A DNA stretch of 64,000 nt from Patescibacteria group bacterium (lineage in GTDB: Bacteria; Patescibacteriota; Patescibacteriia; Magasanikbacterales; GWA2-37-8), in contig SCQK01000014.1 in NCBI GenBank assembly GCA_004321885.1, forward strand, positions 32,001-96,000, read 5' to 3'. Both the position numbers and the translations under genes were made by a program. How positions within the stretch are numbered: position 1 is the stretch's first letter; each line of letters begins with the position of its first letter. Of the stretch, positions 7,676-61,968 are shown piece by piece. The notes under the pieces are model-generated. The model saw nothing but the letters and a program-made list of their open reading frames with translations. It had not been told where the DNA came from and made no database searches.

Positions 7676-8857
7676 ATGAACCGGGAAAAAAATCTGAAGA
7701 CCATGCCGCGTGCGATTTTCGTATCGCACGCATTGCTCCCCGACTACAAGTCGAGTGAGCTCATCAGCCGCCGGCTCAAAGAACTCGGCCAGGGGTGGCC
7801 GGAAAAGGGGAAAGAGCCGGGGTTTATCCACTGGCTAACCTTCCCGGTGGTTCCGCCCCAGGAGAGTGGCGGTCGGCCGATTCTCGTGGATTTTCTTATC
7901 ATTCCGCTTTTCGCCGACGCCTACTTCAGGGCTATCGCCAGCGGCAAGGCCTATGTTTGGGCCTGCGAGGCTGTGGAAAGGGCCGTTGAGAACGCGCTCT
8001 TGGACGGCGTGTCGCCTGACGATATCTGGGTTGGTTGGGGGGCGTTCACTAAGATAGCCACTCATCACGGGAAGCTATTTTTGGAGAACAACCCCAAGTT
8101 CTCCTCAAATTCAACCCATGGAGACGCTGGCACTGGCGCGTTGGTGATAGAAGCTATCCTAGAAGCCGGCTTCAAGCCTGGCTTTAAGGTAGCGGTAATC
8201 GGCGCCAATGGGGCCATTGGTGACGCGGTTAGTCGCGTTCTTCCTTCCCTATCCCCGGCGAGTATCATGCTTGTGGGCAGGGAAGACGCGCCCGGGCAGG
8301 ACCGCAATTTTCTGCGTCTGCGGGAATTGGGCGTGTGCGTGGCGCAGAAAGTGAACGGCGGCCAAACCAAAGTCACCACGCACCAGGACAAGCGCACGGC
8401 CTGTCTGGAACAGGGAAGCGACCTGGTCATAGTCGCGACAAGCGGCAGTACGGTCGTTCGTCCCACTGAAGTTCCACATGGCGCGCTGGTGCTGGACATC
8501 ACGACGCCGAGCGCGTGCGGAACAGATCCGCGCGGGTGGGAGGGCAAGATGGTAGTTTTGGCCGGTTGCGGACAGTTTCTTCCGGGTGTTCTCCCGCTGG
8601 TCTTCGGCGAGACTGGCGGCGAGCCCATACTTGACGTCGGCGCCGGCGGCGCACTCTGCTTGTGGGGTTGCACGGGCGAAACAATCTCCCGTGCGGTTTT
8701 TGGGGTTCGCGGTCATCTCGCCGGACCCGAGATCCCCTTGGAAGCGGTTACGCAATGCGCCGAGCACTTTAGGGGGCTCGGCTTTGCGCCCCAGCCTTTC
8801 ACGGCGTTCGGAAAGTCCGTCGCGACCGACGCCGTGCGCCAGTTCGTCGCCGCGTAG
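7676..8857 (+). CDS. NAD(P)-binding oxidoreductase, shikimate/quinate-dehydrogenase-like fold. GC-rich gene.
   Basis: 393 aa. THGDAGTGALV...KVAVIGANGAIGDAVSRVL (GxxGxxG Rossmann after an N-terminal substrate domain). GC visibly higher than flanks (long antisense ORFs are a GC artefact). Followed by a strong terminator. Confidence 0.4.
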   Translation: MNREKNLKTMPRAIFVSHALLPDYKSSELISRRLKELGQGWPEKGKEPGFIHWLTFPVVPPQESGGRPILVDFLIIPLFADAYFRAIASGKAYVWACEAVERAVENALLDGVSPDDIWVGWGAFTKIATHHGKLFLENNPKFSSNSTHGDAGTGALVIEAILEAGFKPGFKVAVIGANGAIGDAVSRVLPSLSPASIMLVGREDAPGQDRNFLRLRELGVCVAQKVNGGQTKVTTHQDKRTACLEQGSDLVIVATSGSTVVRPTEVPHGALVLDITTPSACGTDPRGWEGKMVVLAGCGQFLPGVLPLVFGETGGEPILDVGAGGALCLWGCTGETISRAVFGVRGHLAGPEIPLEAVTQCAEHFRGLGFAPQPFTAFGKSVATDAVRQFVAA

Positions 8858-11996: not shown

Positions 11997-12083
11997 GCCC
12001 GGGTGGCGAAACTGGAAGACGCATATCCTTGAGGTGGATACGGCCGCAAGGCCTTGGAGGTTCGAGTCCTCTCCCGGGCACCA
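11997..12083 (+). tRNA. tRNA-Leu(GAG), CCA encoded
   Basis: Acceptor GCCCGGG/CCCGGGC, anticodon stem TATCC/GGATA, loop TTGAGGT (anticodon GAG), long variable arm GGCCGCAAGGCC, T-arm GGAGGTTCGAGTCCTCT, terminal ACCA. Confidence 0.85.
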
Positions 12084-12092
12084 AATAAACTT

Positions 12093-12335
12093 ATGCGCAT
12101 CATTATTGGCATCATCATGGCGCTCGCGGGCGTGCTCGTGATAATAAAATCCGAGTGGTTTATCGCGAACTTCGGCGCCAGCGCCTGGGCCGAAGAAAAG
12201 CTGGGCACGAGCGGCGGCACGCGCCTAATGTACAAGCTGTTGGGGCTATCTTTTATTTTTATCGGCTTCCTTTTGATTACAAATTTAATCGGCGGATTTT
12301 TGATGGCGACAGTGGGCAGATTGTTTATCAGATAG
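12093..12335 (+). CDS. Small two-TM membrane protein
   Basis: 80 aa from ATG 12093 (the track ORF start at 12054 is TTG inside the tRNA). Hydrophobic MRIIIGIIMALAGVLVII... and LLGLSFIFIGFLLITNLIGG. Confidence 0.4.
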   Translation: MRIIIGIIMALAGVLVIIKSEWFIANFGASAWAEEKLGTSGGTRLMYKLLGLSFIFIGFLLITNLIGGFLMATVGRLFIR

Positions 12336-12339
12336 TAAT

Positions 12340-14337
12340 ATGATTCTGATAAAAAAAGACGACGAACTTGACATCGCGATAAGGAAAAGTCACAGTTACG
12401 CATTTTCAACGCCCCATAGCGGGTTGCATTTAATTGAAATCGTCGCGAAAGCCAATAGTTGGTGGCAAAATTTGAAAAGTTTTAAGTCATTTTTAAACGA
12501 CGATGATTTGGTGGTGAAAATAGATGAAACGGAATTTCCAAAATTAAGCGGCCGGAAGGGGTTATTCAATGGAGAGGCGGCGTGGAACGGCGACAACCTG
12601 AAAGGAAATCTAAAGACGGGAATATTTTTGGTTAGTTTGGCATCGGGCGCTCACGTGATAAATTTTTTCGCCGATCAAAAGCCGGTGTTAAAAGGTGTAA
12701 GAATTTATAAAATCGAGCAGGGAGAACCGTATGTGCCGGAAAAAAATAATCCGCCACAAGACGGAGACAGGCGGCAGTGGATGACAATCGCCCTGATTGA
12801 TTTGAGTTTGAAAAGTTTGTTTATCAGCGCTGTCGTTGGCGCTCATCAGAGAGATGACAGCGATATCAAGTTGATTGTTGACGGAAAAATTATACAAAAT
12901 GAGCAAAAAAATTCACACAAGAATTGGTTTTGGTGTGGTAATTTATCAAAAGGAGAACCAAGGGAACTCAACAAAGAGTTGAATCTGCCGAAAGGGTTGC
13001 ATTATGTGGAATTATGGGCGGACAAGACGCCAAAGTTATTGGAATTAAGAATCAATGTCGATAAAGATGATTCCAGAATTAAAGCCAAAATTATTTGGCA
13101 AACCGCCGCGTTAAGGAGAGAGCCAAATCAAAAGGCAGATACTGTAGCTGAGATTTCCGAAGGCAAACAAGTAATAATATTAGAAAAGGCGGTTTTGGGG
13201 AAAAGACCCGCGAACGTAAATGGCGTGTTACTTTCTTCCGACCGTTGGCACAAGGTTGAGTATGAAAACAATGTCGGGTATATTTATTCGGAGGCGGTAG
13301 AGATTGAGGGAGAGGATCCAAAAACGATTGAAAAATTTATTTTGAGCAAAGCCGAAGAAGTGGGAGCAGACGGATGCCTGATGGCGGCGATTGCCAAACG
13401 TGAATCGCATTTTTTCCCCTATGCGGTTTCCGGCGCTGACGCGAAGGGTTTGTTTCAAATGGTAAAAACGTCCCTGACCGATGTAAACGATATTTTTGAC
13501 AAAAAAATTGATAATCTTTTTAATATCGCGCAATCTACAGAAGCGGCAATTTTGTATTTTACAATAATTAGAGAAAGATATAAAAATAAGAACGATTTCC
13601 TTAGAAGATGCTTAGCCGCATGGAATTGGGGCAAAGGAAACGTTGATCCAGGTAATTCATTTTTAATGAAAAAATTGCCTGGCGAAACCCGGATATTTAT
13701 CAACGAGGTTCTAAAAAATTATAATGATTGCAAAAGTAGGTCTGTTTTAAAAGGAAAAATAAATTTATTATTCTTATTGATGAGCGGTTTTTTTATTTCC
13801 GCGATATTATTATCGTTTGCCATTTTTTTTGCTTTCGATGACAAAAATTATAAAGAGCCGCCGTCATATTATGGCGACAATTTTGTTTTAGCCGAGCATG
13901 AAATAGACGTGGATGGCGATGGAACAAAAGAAAAACTGGTCGTCATTAGAGACAAATTAAACTCAACATTTGGCATGACAAGAAACATTTTAGTGAGAAG
14001 TAACGGAAGGTTGCGTGAGTTGTCAAAAGAGGAGGGAAATTTTCTTTGGTGGAAGGTGGGCGATTTCAACGATAACGGCAAAGTTGATATCGCAATTCAT
14101 TATGGATATACCGGTAGCGGTGAGTTTGGAAAGTTTTATTTACAAGAGTGGAACGGAAAAGATTTTACGACTGTATTTATCAGAGAAGATGTTGACAATA
14201 AAGTAAATTTTGTTGATTTGAATCACGATGGAATGGAAGAGATTATTTATACTTATCGGCTGTCAAAGTGGAAGCCAGATAGGTATGATATTTATCAGTG
14301 GAATGCTTTTTCTTCCAAATTAATCCTATATAAGTAA
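12340..14337 (+). CDS. Large multidomain protein: unknown N-domain, SH3b-like, SLT lytic transglycosylase, TM helix, FG-GAP/VCBS-like repeats
   Basis: 665 aa. SLT motif AIAKRESHF...AKGLFQM. SH3b-like KADTVAEISEGKQVIILEKA...SDRWHKVEY. TM LLFLLMSGFFISAILLSFAIFFAF. C-terminal DVDGDGTKE / GDFNDNGKVDIAI / DLNHDGMEEII. Strongly AT-rich. Confidence 0.65.
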   Translation: MILIKKDDELDIAIRKSHSYAFSTPHSGLHLIEIVAKANSWWQNLKSFKSFLNDDDLVVKIDETEFPKLSGRKGLFNGEAAWNGDNLKGNLKTGIFLVSLASGAHVINFFADQKPVLKGVRIYKIEQGEPYVPEKNNPPQDGDRRQWMTIALIDLSLKSLFISAVVGAHQRDDSDIKLIVDGKIIQNEQKNSHKNWFWCGNLSKGEPRELNKELNLPKGLHYVELWADKTPKLLELRINVDKDDSRIKAKIIWQTAALRREPNQKADTVAEISEGKQVIILEKAVLGKRPANVNGVLLSSDRWHKVEYENNVGYIYSEAVEIEGEDPKTIEKFILSKAEEVGADGCLMAAIAKRESHFFPYAVSGADAKGLFQMVKTSLTDVNDIFDKKIDNLFNIAQSTEAAILYFTIIRERYKNKNDFLRRCLAAWNWGKGNVDPGNSFLMKKLPGETRIFINEVLKNYNDCKSRSVLKGKINLLFLLMSGFFISAILLSFAIFFAFDDKNYKEPPSYYGDNFVLAEHEIDVDGDGTKEKLVVIRDKLNSTFGMTRNILVRSNGRLRELSKEEGNFLWWKVGDFNDNGKVDIAIHYGYTGSGEFGKFYLQEWNGKDFTTVFIREDVDNKVNFVDLNHDGMEEIIYTYRLSKWKPDRYDIYQWNAFSSKLILYK

Positions 14338-14338
14338 T

Positions 14339-14887
14339 ATGTCTCACTCCGGCACGGCGCTTCTCAATCCATACAAGATTTTCGCGGACATCAAATTGGC
14401 CAAGGGCATGCGCGTGGCTGATTTGGGTTGCGGCCGCACCGGTCATTTTGTTTTTCCGGCGGCCAAGACCGTGGGCGACACCGGCATTGTTTATGGAGTG
14501 GACGTGATGAAGGATGTCCTGGAAAATATTAAGAGCACGGCGCGCGCCGAGGGTTGCGCCAACGTGCAAACTGTCTGGTCCGACCTGGAGCGCGCGGGCA
14601 AGACGCCTCTGCCTCCGGCCAGCGTGGATGCGTGTTTTTTCGTCAATGTTCTGTTCCAGGTAAAAGACAAACGTTCCGCCATTGCCGAAGCGGCCCGCTT
14701 GCTCAAAAAACAGGGCCATCTGGTGATAATTGACTGGCAAAAAAAATTGGGGATGTTGGGTCCCGCGCCAGGGCAAATGTTAATTATTGACACGCTCGTT
14801 GACTTGGCCGGCCAGAGCATGTTAAAATTGGCCAAACAATTTCAGGCCAGCGATTATCATTTCGGCTTAATTTTCGCAAAGGAATAA
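14339..14887 (+). CDS. Class I SAM-dependent methyltransferase
   Basis: Motif I VADLGCGRTG, downstream acidic/aromatic motifs, 182 aa. Confidence 0.7.
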   Translation: MSHSGTALLNPYKIFADIKLAKGMRVADLGCGRTGHFVFPAAKTVGDTGIVYGVDVMKDVLENIKSTARAEGCANVQTVWSDLERAGKTPLPPASVDACFFVNVLFQVKDKRSAIAEAARLLKKQGHLVIIDWQKKLGMLGPAPGQMLIIDTLVDLAGQSMLKLAKQFQASDYHFGLIFAKE

Positions 14888-34117: not shown

Positions 34118-34384
34118 TTATTTCGTTTTGATTAGTTTATCATTAATAATTTTTTCAATATAGTCTCTTCTTTTTAATCTTTTAAGTTTGAGTTCAATTC
34201 GTCTCGCTTCCGTCGTTGTTTCGTAGTGCTGTTTAAATTTTATTATCCATGGGCCTTTATTTTTTGTTGAAGGTGTCTCCCCATTATTGTGTTCAATCAG
34301 CCGGTTTTCCGGATTGTTTGAAGACCCTATATAATACATTCCTGATTTAAGACTTTGCAAGATATAAACGTAAAAACCCTCCAT
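34118..34384 (-). CDS. Small free-standing GIY-YIG nuclease-domain protein
   Basis: 88 aa from MEGFYVYILQSLKSGMYYIGSSNNPENRLIEHN (GIY...YIG...R...E.N). Extremely AT-rich. Sits between tRNA-Pro and a partial tRNA-Pro copy. Confidence 0.7.
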   Translation of the reverse strand: MEGFYVYILQSLKSGMYYIGSSNNPENRLIEHNNGETPSTKNKGPWIIKFKQHYETTTEARRIELKLKRLKRRDYIEKIINDKLIKTK

Positions 34385-34400
34385 AATTGACTTTTTAATA

Positions 34401-34459
34401 GAACCCGCGGCCTCCCCGACGTACCGTCGGGGCGCGCTACCAACTGCGCTACAGCCCGA
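34401..34459 (-). pseudogene. Partial tRNA-Pro copy (acceptor 5' strand + D-arm + T-arm start) with anticodon arm replaced by CCCCGAC-GTACC-GTCGGGG hairpin
   Basis: 28 nt (34432-34459) identical to the 5' portion of tRNA-Pro (34082-34109) and gaacccgcggcc (34401-34412) identical to 34055-34066. No 3' acceptor strand. Confidence 0.6.
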
Positions 34460-34463
34460 TTGT

Positions 34464-34509
34464 ATGGATTCCCGCTTTCCCGCCAAAGGCGGGCAGGCGC
34501 GGGAATGAT
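34464..34509. repeat. Third GTCATTCCCGC...GCGGGAATCCA palindromic element (inverted orientation) with nested CCCGCC-AAAG-GCGGG hairpin
   Basis: Reverse complement reads ATCATTCCCGCgcctgCCCGCCTTTGGCGGGaaaGCGGGAATCCA. Confidence 0.5.
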
Positions 34510-34620
34510 ACCGACAGTAGGGTATCACGTTTTTTTGCGCTTTTCAAGGGGTAAAATTTGTGATAGAATATGCCCTGTCCGCTGGATTACCAGCGACAGA
34601 TAATTTTTACCCCCACCCAA

Positions 34621-60658: not shown

Positions 60659-61111
60659 ATGGAAATTAATTATTCAAGAGCCAACAGGCGCGATAAGCAA
60701 GATGTTTATGAGCTTAGCTTGTTGTTGAACAAAGGGGACGATACCAAAACAACCAAAGACATAGAAGAATCTGTTAATAGGGCGCTGAAAAATAATTTGG
60801 TGTGGTCGGCGAAAGACGAAGACAGAATCATCGGTTATGTTCTTTGTGAATTGTTTGATGAGACCCAATTGAATTTTCCGAACTCAATTTTTATTTCCGA
60901 ACTTTATGTAGTTGACGCGTTTCGCAAGCAAGGAGTTGGTAAAGAGCTCGTTAAAATGGTGCTATCCAATAAATTTCCAAAAAAGTATTACTATTTTTCC
61001 GTAACACACGATCCTAAGGCGTTTTATTTAACTGATTTTTATAAATCCTGCGGGTTTGAAGAAAAGGGCATAACGAATGCGGGAAATATAAAATTAACGA
61101 GAAAAATATAA
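60659..61111 (+). CDS. GNAT-family N-acetyltransferase
   Basis: Motif A FRKQGVGKELVKMV, 150 aa, AT-rich. Confidence 0.7.
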   Translation: MEINYSRANRRDKQDVYELSLLLNKGDDTKTTKDIEESVNRALKNNLVWSAKDEDRIIGYVLCELFDETQLNFPNSIFISELYVVDAFRKQGVGKELVKMVLSNKFPKKYYYFSVTHDPKAFYLTDFYKSCGFEEKGITNAGNIKLTRKI

Positions 61112-61128
61112 TTAACATCAAAAATAAT

Positions 61129-61968
61129 ATGGAGAAAACAAAAATCGCAATTTTTAAGGGCAAAAAAGTTCGCAAGATTCTATTTCAAAAAGAGTGGTGG
61201 TTTGTCATAAATGATGTCATTGAAATGTTGACGGATTCAGGTGATCCAGCCCAATACTTTAAGAGATTAAAAGAAAGAGACGAGGAGCTGGCAAAAATCG
61301 TAGACAAAGGGGGGGTACAATTTGTACCACCCCTCATGCTTGTTGTAGAAACTGCCGGTGGCAAGCAAAAAATGTATTGCTGGAATACTGAGGGTATTTT
61401 TCGTCTTGTACAATCAATCCCGTCGCCAAAAGCCGAGCCATTTAAGCGCTGGCTGGCCAGGGTGGGCTATGAGCGTGTGCAGGAAATTGAGAACCCGGAA
61501 TTGGCCACTAAACGAACGCGGATGTTATACAAGTTAAAAGGCTATCCTGATAGTTGGATAGAAAAACGAATGCGCGGCATTGAAGTGCGCGAAACCCTGA
61601 CTGACCAGTGGCAAAAACACGAAGTGAAACTGCAAAAAGAGTACGAAATACTAACCGCCGAAATCGCCCGTGCCACTTTCGGCCTTACTCCAAGCCAGCA
61701 TAAAAAAGTTAAAGGTTTAAAAAGAGAAAATCTGCGCGACCACATGAACGACTTGGAGTTGATTTTTTCCATGCTTGGCGAAGCCGCCACCACGGAAATC
61801 GTCCGCAACGAACATCCGCTTGGATTTGTGAAAAATAAAAAAGTTGCCAAACGCGGCGGCGGCGTGGCCGGTTTGGCCAGAAAGAAGATGGAAATAGAAA
61901 CCGGTAAAAAAGTAGTGAGCAAAGAAAATTATCTGCCGCTGATAAAAAGAAAAAAGCGGTTAAAATAA
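61129..61968 (+). CDS. Bro-N-domain / DNA-damage-inducible-protein-D (DinD)-like protein
   Basis: IFKGKKVRKILFQKEWWFVINDVIEML resembles the Bro-N F.G..VR.I...G..WFVA.DV..LG motif. Length matches DinD. Basic C-terminus. Confidence 0.45.
   Translation: MEKTKIAIFKGKKVRKILFQKEWWFVINDVIEMLTDSGDPAQYFKRLKERDEELAKIVDKGGVQFVPPLMLVVETAGGKQKMYCWNTEGIFRLVQSIPSPKAEPFKRWLARVGYERVQEIENPELATKRTRMLYKLKGYPDSWIEKRMRGIEVRETLTDQWQKHEVKLQKEYEILTAEIARATFGLTPSQHKKVKGLKRENLRDHMNDLELIFSMLGEAATTEIVRNEHPLGFVKNKKVAKRGGGVAGLARKKMEIETGKKVVSKENYLPLIKRKKRLK

Follow-up and report, generated by a model that had tools for sequence, protein, structure and literature searches.

How can a wall-cleaving enzyme without a signal peptide act when the same polypeptide carries, beyond a single transmembrane (TM) helix, a partial β-propeller? 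The gene that raises this question lies at positions 12340–14337 of a 64,000-nucleotide stretch (the window) of contig SCQK01000014.1, from a member of the Patescibacteria, or Candidate Phyla Radiation (CPR). An earlier note on this DNA pointed out that the SLT lytic transglycosylase domain and the FG-GAP-like repeats of the product would fall on opposite sides of the membrane. The puzzle is real and is conserved throughout the family. By analogy with known effector systems, we read the gene as a bacteriolysin or effector joined to an immunity-like partner, together a membrane-spanning wall-lysis module of the CPR kind. The reading is tentative, and we place its chances somewhat below even.

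The open reading frame (ORF) is intact, encodes 665 residues, and has no earlier in-frame start. It is identical to an NCBI entry from a Patescibacteria metagenome-assembled genome (MAG), 'hypothetical protein EPN28_04000 [Patescibacteria group bacterium]', and a second, independent assembly holds the identical protein. The gene has a GC content of 38.5% against 49% for the window, and a GC content at third codon positions (GC3) of 0.41 against 0.52–0.69 for neighbouring genes. The bias therefore lies at the nucleotide level, beyond amino acid composition. The ORF boundaries, the AT-richness, the skew relative to the neighbours, and the CPR-type cell that the earlier note had assumed all hold up. 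No further paralogue of the ORF was found in the window. The product is sequentially composed of the following parts.

12340..14337, forward strand: whole ORF, 665 aa (ORF call; identity to NCBI protein EPN28_04000)
12340..13074, forward strand: N-module, aa 1–245, with two jelly-rolls (about 1–125 and 145–241); no Pfam match
13105..13299, forward strand: SH3b-like domain, aa 256–320 (Pfam SH3_3 sub-threshold; above the cut-off in homologues)
13351..13647, forward strand: SLT lytic transglycosylase domain, aa 338–436 (Pfam, MltC-like alignment, invariant residues)
13759..13836, forward strand: single TM helix, aa 474–499 (Kyte-Doolittle score 2.44; family charge bias)
13837..14334, forward strand: C-domain, aa 500–665, a three-blade FG-GAP-type partial β-propeller

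The N-module, by which the family is defined, is built from two tandem jelly-roll β-sandwiches resembling carbohydrate-binding modules (CBM6/35/22-like), which are confidently modelled and start at residue 2. It has no match in a Pfam scan and is missing from the domain list of the earlier note, which was otherwise right in naming SH3b, SLT, TM, and FG-GAP parts. The SH3b-like domain scores 22.6 bits for Pfam SH3_3 (PF08239), below the cut-off of 27, but the aligned region of several homologues scores 28.6–38.6 bits. The earlier SH3b and FG-GAP calls thus fall short by profile in the query itself and draw their support from homologues and structure prediction. The SLT call is solid, with a Pfam match (PF01464) of 53.7 bits against a gathering cut-off of 21.3 (E=1.9e-14). 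The catalytic pair E355-S356 is preceded by an arginine (the codon of E355 is 13402–13404), and the motifs GLFQM and AAWNWG are present at aa 370 and aa 426, respectively. E355, G370, Q373, and Y406 are invariant across 25 homologues, and the region can be aligned to MltC structures through the catalytic E-S motif. On these residues, the domain is an active-looking lytic transglycosylase. A cysteine, C464 (13729–13731), lies about 10 residues before the TM helix and is conserved in the SLT/FG-GAP subfamily within the motif N/E-x-C-K (family alignment columns about 640–650).

A HMMER search with the N-module alone retrieved 320 representative clusters (50% identity), 247 of them at E≤1e-10, and the module sits at the extreme N terminus in almost every protein listed. 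Full-length homologues of 32–49% identity share the layout of the query. Among 186 members examined, 99 contain one TM helix at about aa 400–500 followed by a C-domain with a median length of 196 aa, and 69 lack any hydrophobic segment.

The sidedness of the two halves was deduced from the TM helix and its flanks. A Kyte-Doolittle scan of the 665-aa protein shows one strong hydrophobic stretch, aa 474–499 (2.44), and no hydrophobic N terminus, where windows score at most 0.4. In the predicted structure, residues 2–24 form β-strands of the first jelly-roll with a predicted local distance difference test (pLDDT) score of 96–98, leaving no room for a cryptic signal peptide. None of the 186 members has an N-terminal hydrophobic segment. 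The absence of a signal peptide, noted earlier, is thus confirmed, and a cryptic one is rejected by hydropathy, the survey of members, and the structure prediction alike. The helix of the query is flanked by KSRSVLKGK on the N-terminal side and DDKNYKE on the C-terminal side. Over the 99 TM-bearing members, the 15 flanking residues contain on average 4.14 lysines and arginines before the helix and 2.20 after it. The N-terminal side is the richer in 76 members and the C-terminal side in 16 (Wilcoxon p=1.6e-12, a value somewhat inflated by the relatedness of members). By the positive-inside rule and given the absent signal, aa 474–499 would be a type-II signal-anchor. The enzyme half is accordingly predicted to be inside and the C-domain outside, in the query and in the family.

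Natural split forms independently support this topology. Every short member inspected has a small gene right behind it. In an independent genome set, all nine complete short genes of the family (375–430 aa, no TM helix) are followed by an ORF of 138–225 aa at −16 to +13 nt, and the product of each of these nine ORFs has an N-terminal hydrophobic segment. The genes downstream of three members (P0034, P0039, and P0027) encode 212–224 aa and start −11 to +33 nt from the stop codon. At two loci (L010 and L038), the partner of an SLT-type short enzyme has FG-GAP-like loops and shares homology with C-domains from fused members (blastp 7e-11 and 3e-12). Because the enzyme and partner occur in other lineages as such translationally coupled gene pairs, the halves of the query can be taken as a Rosetta-stone fusion, with the C-domain outside. 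The split and fused forms are equivalent. A cognate gene directly downstream is the arrangement of effector–immunity systems, and it is found in all nine split forms; immunity itself is suggested by analogy.

The earlier note had also imagined a split version, made of a secreted SLT enzyme and a separate membrane protein. A split version does occur naturally, but as a signal-less enzyme with a separately exported partner. That the query is a sequencing or assembly artefact, in which a frameshift near 13750 joins two genes, has a negligible probability. The split versions in other lineages might have been taken in its favour; however, the identical protein is present in the independent assembly, and 99 of 186 members examined are fused in the same way, with their TM helix in the corresponding place, among them full-length homologues only 32–49% identical to the query. 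The artefact is rejected.

A promoter-like site, TTATCA-17-TATAAT with 10/12 matches, is present inside the ORF at 13697–13725. It precedes an in-frame TTG/ATG (L480/M481, 13777–13782) within the TM helix. The site and this start could give rise to a separate exported C-domain. The internal M481 is not conserved among homologues, and chance promoter-like sites are frequent in AT-rich DNA.

The predicted topology bears directly on the picture drawn by the earlier note, a surface enzyme with adhesion repeats. In that picture, the N-terminal 470 aa would be exported by a non-Sec route, such as a CPR type IV secretion system (T4SS) or pilus, the helix would be an anchor, and the enzyme would breach the host wall from the surface. 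CBM-like, SH3b, and SLT domains are indeed of types that are normally extracellular, and trafficked polymorphic toxins are likewise built from a conserved N-terminal module and variable toxin-like domains. T4SSs are widespread in Patescibacteria, and epibiotic growth of one species requires muralytic enzymes encoded close to virB4 (PMC12102498), which favours non-Sec export. The gene of one homologue, in a mobile element, directly follows one for a TraG/VirD4-like coupling protein. However, this is the only such neighbour in about 10 homologue contexts, and no T4SS genes were found in these contexts or in the window. Neither a conserved secretion-system neighbour nor a recognised trafficking domain was found for the family in the contexts inspected. 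The charge bias predicts that the N terminus is inside, and the C-domains possess their own N-terminal export signal when separately encoded and contain calcium-loop repeats, which are typical of extracellular proteins. Export of a folded 470-aa region ahead of a TM helix also has no known mechanism. Since the flanking charges and the split forms place the enzyme inside and the repeats outside, we regard the surface enzyme as quite unlikely.

The enzyme half is mosaic across the family. At least four catalytic classes of glycan-cleaving domain follow the N-module: SLT (71 members), a divergent lysozyme-like class with ES...MQVG motifs that we call LysX (41), Hydrolase_2, which is SleB-like (34), and Tse3-like/DUF1402 (5). 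When each member is compared with its nearest neighbour by N-module, the catalytic class agrees in only 76 of 147 cases, which argues for repeated domain exchange behind a conserved head. Such a conserved N-terminal region with swapped C-terminal domains is the pattern of polymorphic toxins.

The class of the partner follows that of the enzyme, in fused and split forms alike. Hydrolase_2 enzymes pair only with a C-domain class named C3, marked by 'WSPD/CGTSC' motifs, in 8 of 8 fused members; four of five split partners match C3 best and the fifth has no match. SLT enzymes pair with the FG-GAP-like class C1 (40 fused and 2 of 2 split) or with C2 (10 fused), and LysX enzymes with C1, C4, or C6. 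Both short Tse3-like members pair with a TM helix plus DUF218 (Pfam E=8e-27 and 1e-13; L042:5289–5897 and L048:5354–5947). DUF218, a family that we take to include SanA, ElyC, and YdcF, replaces the propeller here and hints at a different protective mechanism. The partner of P0027 (L012:7270–7941) is a multipass membrane protein with a weak match, below the cut-off, to Acyl_transf_3 (OatA-type O-acetyltransferase; E=3.6e-4), and may protect by modifying the wall. Such a diverse set of envelope-linked partners, each particular to an enzyme class, suits an immunity or protective role better than that of a generic adhesin or hole-former, as far as we can infer. In this the C-domain resembles a generic adhesin less than it does the cognate partner of the lytic domain.

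Hole formation would be expected under an endolysin-type autolysis, in which the TM helix and C-domain, or the downstream membrane protein, act as a holin-like trigger for programmed lysis, abortive infection, or release of cell contents. Phage lysis typically uses signal-less modular muralytic enzymes, and PHROG endolysin and lytic-tail families match the SH3b and SLT region (E=1e-14). KZ144-type phage endolysins likewise lack a signal peptide and place a wall-binding domain before a C-terminal lytic transglycosylase, the same order of binding module and SLT-type domain as in the query. The holin T of phage T4 combines a single TM helix with an external domain that is large and similar in size. 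In addition, a membrane-protein gene follows the enzyme gene in tight coupling, and the family resides in islands with toxin–antitoxin and abortive-infection (Abi) genes. Yet a scan of 2.9 million viral contigs (IMG/VR) found no relative of the N-module, none of the inspected contexts contains phage genes, and a PADLOC defence-system scan gave no hits. Unlike phage endolysins, the query has a unique tandem CBM-like N-module and an added TM helix with an exported domain. The partners are diverse folded domains (FG-GAP, PD40-like, and DUF218) that track the enzyme class, which is unexpected of hole-formers. As for the phage context and dedicated adjacent holin of a holin–endolysin cassette, neither is present; the sole holin-sized gene nearby (12093–12335) is a conserved core gene in relatives without the enzyme. 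Autolysis of this kind is therefore unlikely. A phage origin is rejected, given that the PHROG matches are confined to SH3b and SLT and that the N-module has no viral relatives.

The C-domain consists of about three blades in 165 aa and does not form a closed seven-blade propeller. For the FG-GAP repeat families (PF13517, PF01839), its Pfam FG-GAP_3 match (aa 575–636) scores 21.8 bits and does not reach the cut-off of 26.9 in the query, and family member P0032 scores 30.9 bits for FG-GAP. Three DxDxDG-like loops are present at aa 523–528 (13906–13923), 575–580 (14062–14079), and 626–631 (14215–14232), together with a conserved hairpin loop, YGYTGSGEFG, at about aa 587–596. A Foldseek search with the model of the domain matches integrin-alpha FG-GAP propellers best (E=7e-4). 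A profile search against the PDB returned only FG-GAP-type (FG-GAP/VCBS propeller) matches, and a single-sequence search of the C-domain against the PDB returned no match. A word-indexed homology search with aa 467–665 missed even the parent protein, which reflects a limit of sensitivity and is not evidence. The domain shares fold and size with the propeller-type peptidoglycan-hydrolase inhibitors PliI, XAC2610, and Tsi1. Its setting is also inhibitor-like, namely a predicted extracytoplasmic domain genetically linked to a signal-less peptidoglycan hydrolase.

These features suggest how a bacteriolysin and its immunity-like partner might work as one polypeptide. Residues 1–465 would be a signal-less muralytic enzyme (two CBM-like jelly-rolls, SH3b, and SLT), made in the cytoplasm and kept on the cytoplasmic face. 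The type-II signal-anchor at aa 474–499 would export aa 500–665 to the cell surface, and the membrane would keep the enzyme from the producer's own wall. Target walls, whether of a host, a competitor, or a sibling, would be reached only after release by producer lysis, linker cleavage, or another export route. The surface C-domain would neutralise any enzyme that reaches the wall of the producer or its kin, in the manner of PliI, Tsi1, and XAC2610. These three inhibitors share a propeller-type topology and block peptidoglycan hydrolases by a loop inserted in the active site (PMC10933484). The signal-less effector XAC2609 reaches the wall by a route independent of its secretion system, and its immunity protein guards against cis-intoxication (PMC10933484).

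Several points weigh against this proposal. The likeness of the C-domain to the inhibitor families is at the fold or superfamily level only: it scores 10.2 bits for PliI (PF16743) against a cut-off of 27 and 18.4 bits for the XAC2610 family (NF047539) against a cut-off of 35, and is thus a sequence member of neither; its PDB profile match to XAC2610 (4qtq) has an E-value of only 0.25. Its strongest fold matches are integrins, lectins, and adhesins. The FG-GAP-like class C1 pairs with two enzyme classes, SLT and LysX, and the co-variation of enzyme and partner could partly stem from joint inheritance of the halves. No route by which the enzyme half might be exported or released was found, and the fused enzyme would be tethered on the wrong side of the membrane. 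The predicted topology draws on hydrophobicity, charge statistics, and the split forms. Finally, to our knowledge, a covalent toxin–immunity fusion is not a described arrangement.

The closest parallels are antibacterial pairs directed at peptidoglycan, namely XAC2609/XAC2610, an effector and immunity pair (X-Tfe/X-Tfi) of the Xanthomonas T4SS, and Tse1/Tsi1 of a type VI secretion system (T6SS), in which a signal-less muralytic effector is followed by an exported cognate immunity product. Like XAC2610 and Tsi1, the partner here has a propeller-type fold, in this case an FG-GAP partial propeller that is enzyme-class-specific. In contrast to both systems, no T4SS or T6SS genes and no XVIPCD-like signal are present, the organism has a single membrane, and most family members fuse enzyme and partner via a TM helix. 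Compared with PliI (PDB 3od9), the C-domain has an identity of only 10–14%, contains three FG-GAP calcium-type loops, and is membrane-anchored. Pesticin/Pim and colicin M/Cmi likewise combine a signal-less modular toxin, with N-terminal binding modules and a C-terminal wall activity, with outward-facing immunity, producer lysis, and mobile genes. The present protein differs from them in needing no outer-membrane translocation domain and in fusing both parts in one polypeptide, which those systems are not known to do. VirB1-type enzymes of single-membrane bacteria (PrgK, TraG of pIP501, and CwlT) also combine an SLT-type domain with a TM segment. However, their N-terminal TM segment or signal puts the enzyme outside and their genes belong to T4SS operons, whereas in the query the helix comes after the enzyme domain and T4SS genes are absent from the vicinity.

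Scanning a single genome from each species gave 38 family loci. Their hosts are Parcubacteria, Moranbacteria, Magasanikbacteria, Kuenenbacteria, Falkowbacteria, Gottesmanbacteria, Nomurabacteria, and MAGs labelled Saccharibacteria. The remaining few are on short MAG contigs labelled Gammaproteobacteria or Bdellovibrionales, labels that we suspect to be due to mis-binning. The N-module family is apparently confined to CPR. Multiple or tandem paralogues occur in some genomes (L014 and L039; L017 and L019 on one Moranbacteria contig; L042 and L043 in one MAG). The papers searched on lytic transglycosylases, immunity proteins, endolysins, and holins of CPR bacteria yielded no description of the family. 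The components are of known kinds; what appears to be new is that a muralytic enzyme and its cognate exported partner are fused across the membrane as a conserved feature of a CPR-restricted polymorphic family.

The surroundings of the gene indicate how it came to its present site. A tRNA-Leu(GAG) gene at 11997–12083 is followed by a small gene at 12093–12335 encoding 80 aa with 2–3 TM helices. A listed 93-aa version of this ORF (12054–12335) begins inside the tRNA, and the gene must start at ATG 12093, because the listed TTG start at 12054 lies within the tRNA. The 80-aa protein is conserved (60–71% identity) in Magasanikbacteria-type genomes without the enzyme. It is a strongly conserved CPR membrane protein without assigned function, always encoded after tRNA-Leu(GAG). 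In relatives, the block reads histidine kinase, bactofilin, DAGK, tRNA-Leu(GAG), 80-aa gene, methyltransferase, 134-aa gene, YraN, NDK, and penicillin-binding protein (PBP). In two Magasanikbacteria-type genomes, the block is intact, and the methyltransferase gene comes next after the 80-aa gene with no other gene in between. It is exactly this junction that the 665-aa ORF fills in the window, where two 9-nt copies of AGTAATATG flank it exactly.

12334..12342, forward strand: left-hand 9-nt direct repeat, AGTAATATG (the 80-aa gene's stop codon, T, ATG)
14333..14341, forward strand: right-hand 9-nt direct repeat, AGTAATATG (the ORF's stop codon, T, ATG of the methyltransferase gene)

Empty junctions in relatives, such as AAATAATATG, are found at L053:4230–4260 and L055:4230–4250. 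The sequence at the junction suggests insertion or replacement via stop/start microhomology. No att-like long repeats were found. The empty site in relatives and the exact placement of the ORF show the gene to be a recent single-ORF insertion from a lower-GC source. By sequence comparison, then, the gene was acquired horizontally, between two conserved core genes. The earlier note had remarked on the tRNA-Leu and the small membrane protein that precede the gene, which they do; they are bystanders rather than partners, since relatives without the 665-aa gene keep both. The 80-aa protein as a holin or partner is rejected on this conserved synteny. The tRNA-Leu as an integration site is rejected on the same synteny and on the lack of long repeats.

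The acquisition also speaks to a housekeeping role, in which an autolysin with a membrane-spanning regulatory partner would remodel the wall or separate daughter cells. SLT enzymes commonly remodel their own wall, and the gene lies among division and wall genes (bactofilin and PBP). However, close relatives with identical synteny lack the gene, and its GC3 is atypical. The family is distributed sporadically, with paralogues, variable islands, and mosaically swapped catalytic domains. We consider the housekeeping role very improbable.

The homologues have no common neighbour. Many of their genes lie beside toxin–antitoxin, AbiE-like, Fic, transposase, or mobile-element genes. Many family members are flanked by toxin–antitoxin or Abi genes, and the 49%-identical homologue P0003 (L052:751–2503) is encoded just downstream of an Amidase_2 gene, a 90-aa ORF, and an MNT/HEPN toxin–antitoxin pair.

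A broader proposal, which we hold to be rather doubtful, is that CPR bacteria carry mobile polymorphic wall-lytic weapons. The toxin (CBM-CBM-[SH3b]-glycan-cleaving) would stay inside and the antidote outside in one polypeptide, and a new release route would set the toxin free. The family may then be one of the main means by which episymbionts breach the walls of hosts or competitors. Regulated cleavage, lysis of a sacrificial subpopulation, and delivery at symbiont–host contact are candidate routes. The locus bears on how ultrasmall CPR episymbionts attack or open the walls of hosts and rivals. It leads to a family of no fewer than 320 clusters, with an unannotated N-module and freely exchanged lytic domains, each of which has its own cognate partner at the surface. 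Should this partner prove to be an inhibitor, the family would offer ready enzyme/inhibitor pairs for biochemistry and a rare toxin–immunity fusion across a membrane. It would also pose a defined question on signal-less export in bacteria with minimal secretion machinery. The comparison of the empty and occupied sites documents the recent acquisition of a single gene in a reduced genome.

Other low-GC genes are present amid the core genes of the window. They comprise two ORFs of no assigned function at 16–1156 (GC 0.377), a GIY-YIG nuclease gene at 34118–34528 (GC 0.414), and a GNAT acetyltransferase gene (0.358) adjoining a Bro-N protein gene (0.439) at 60659–61968. These are probably further small insertions. 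In addition, a 393-aa ORF at 7676–8857 has an unusually high GC content (0.607) and lacks a Pfam match.

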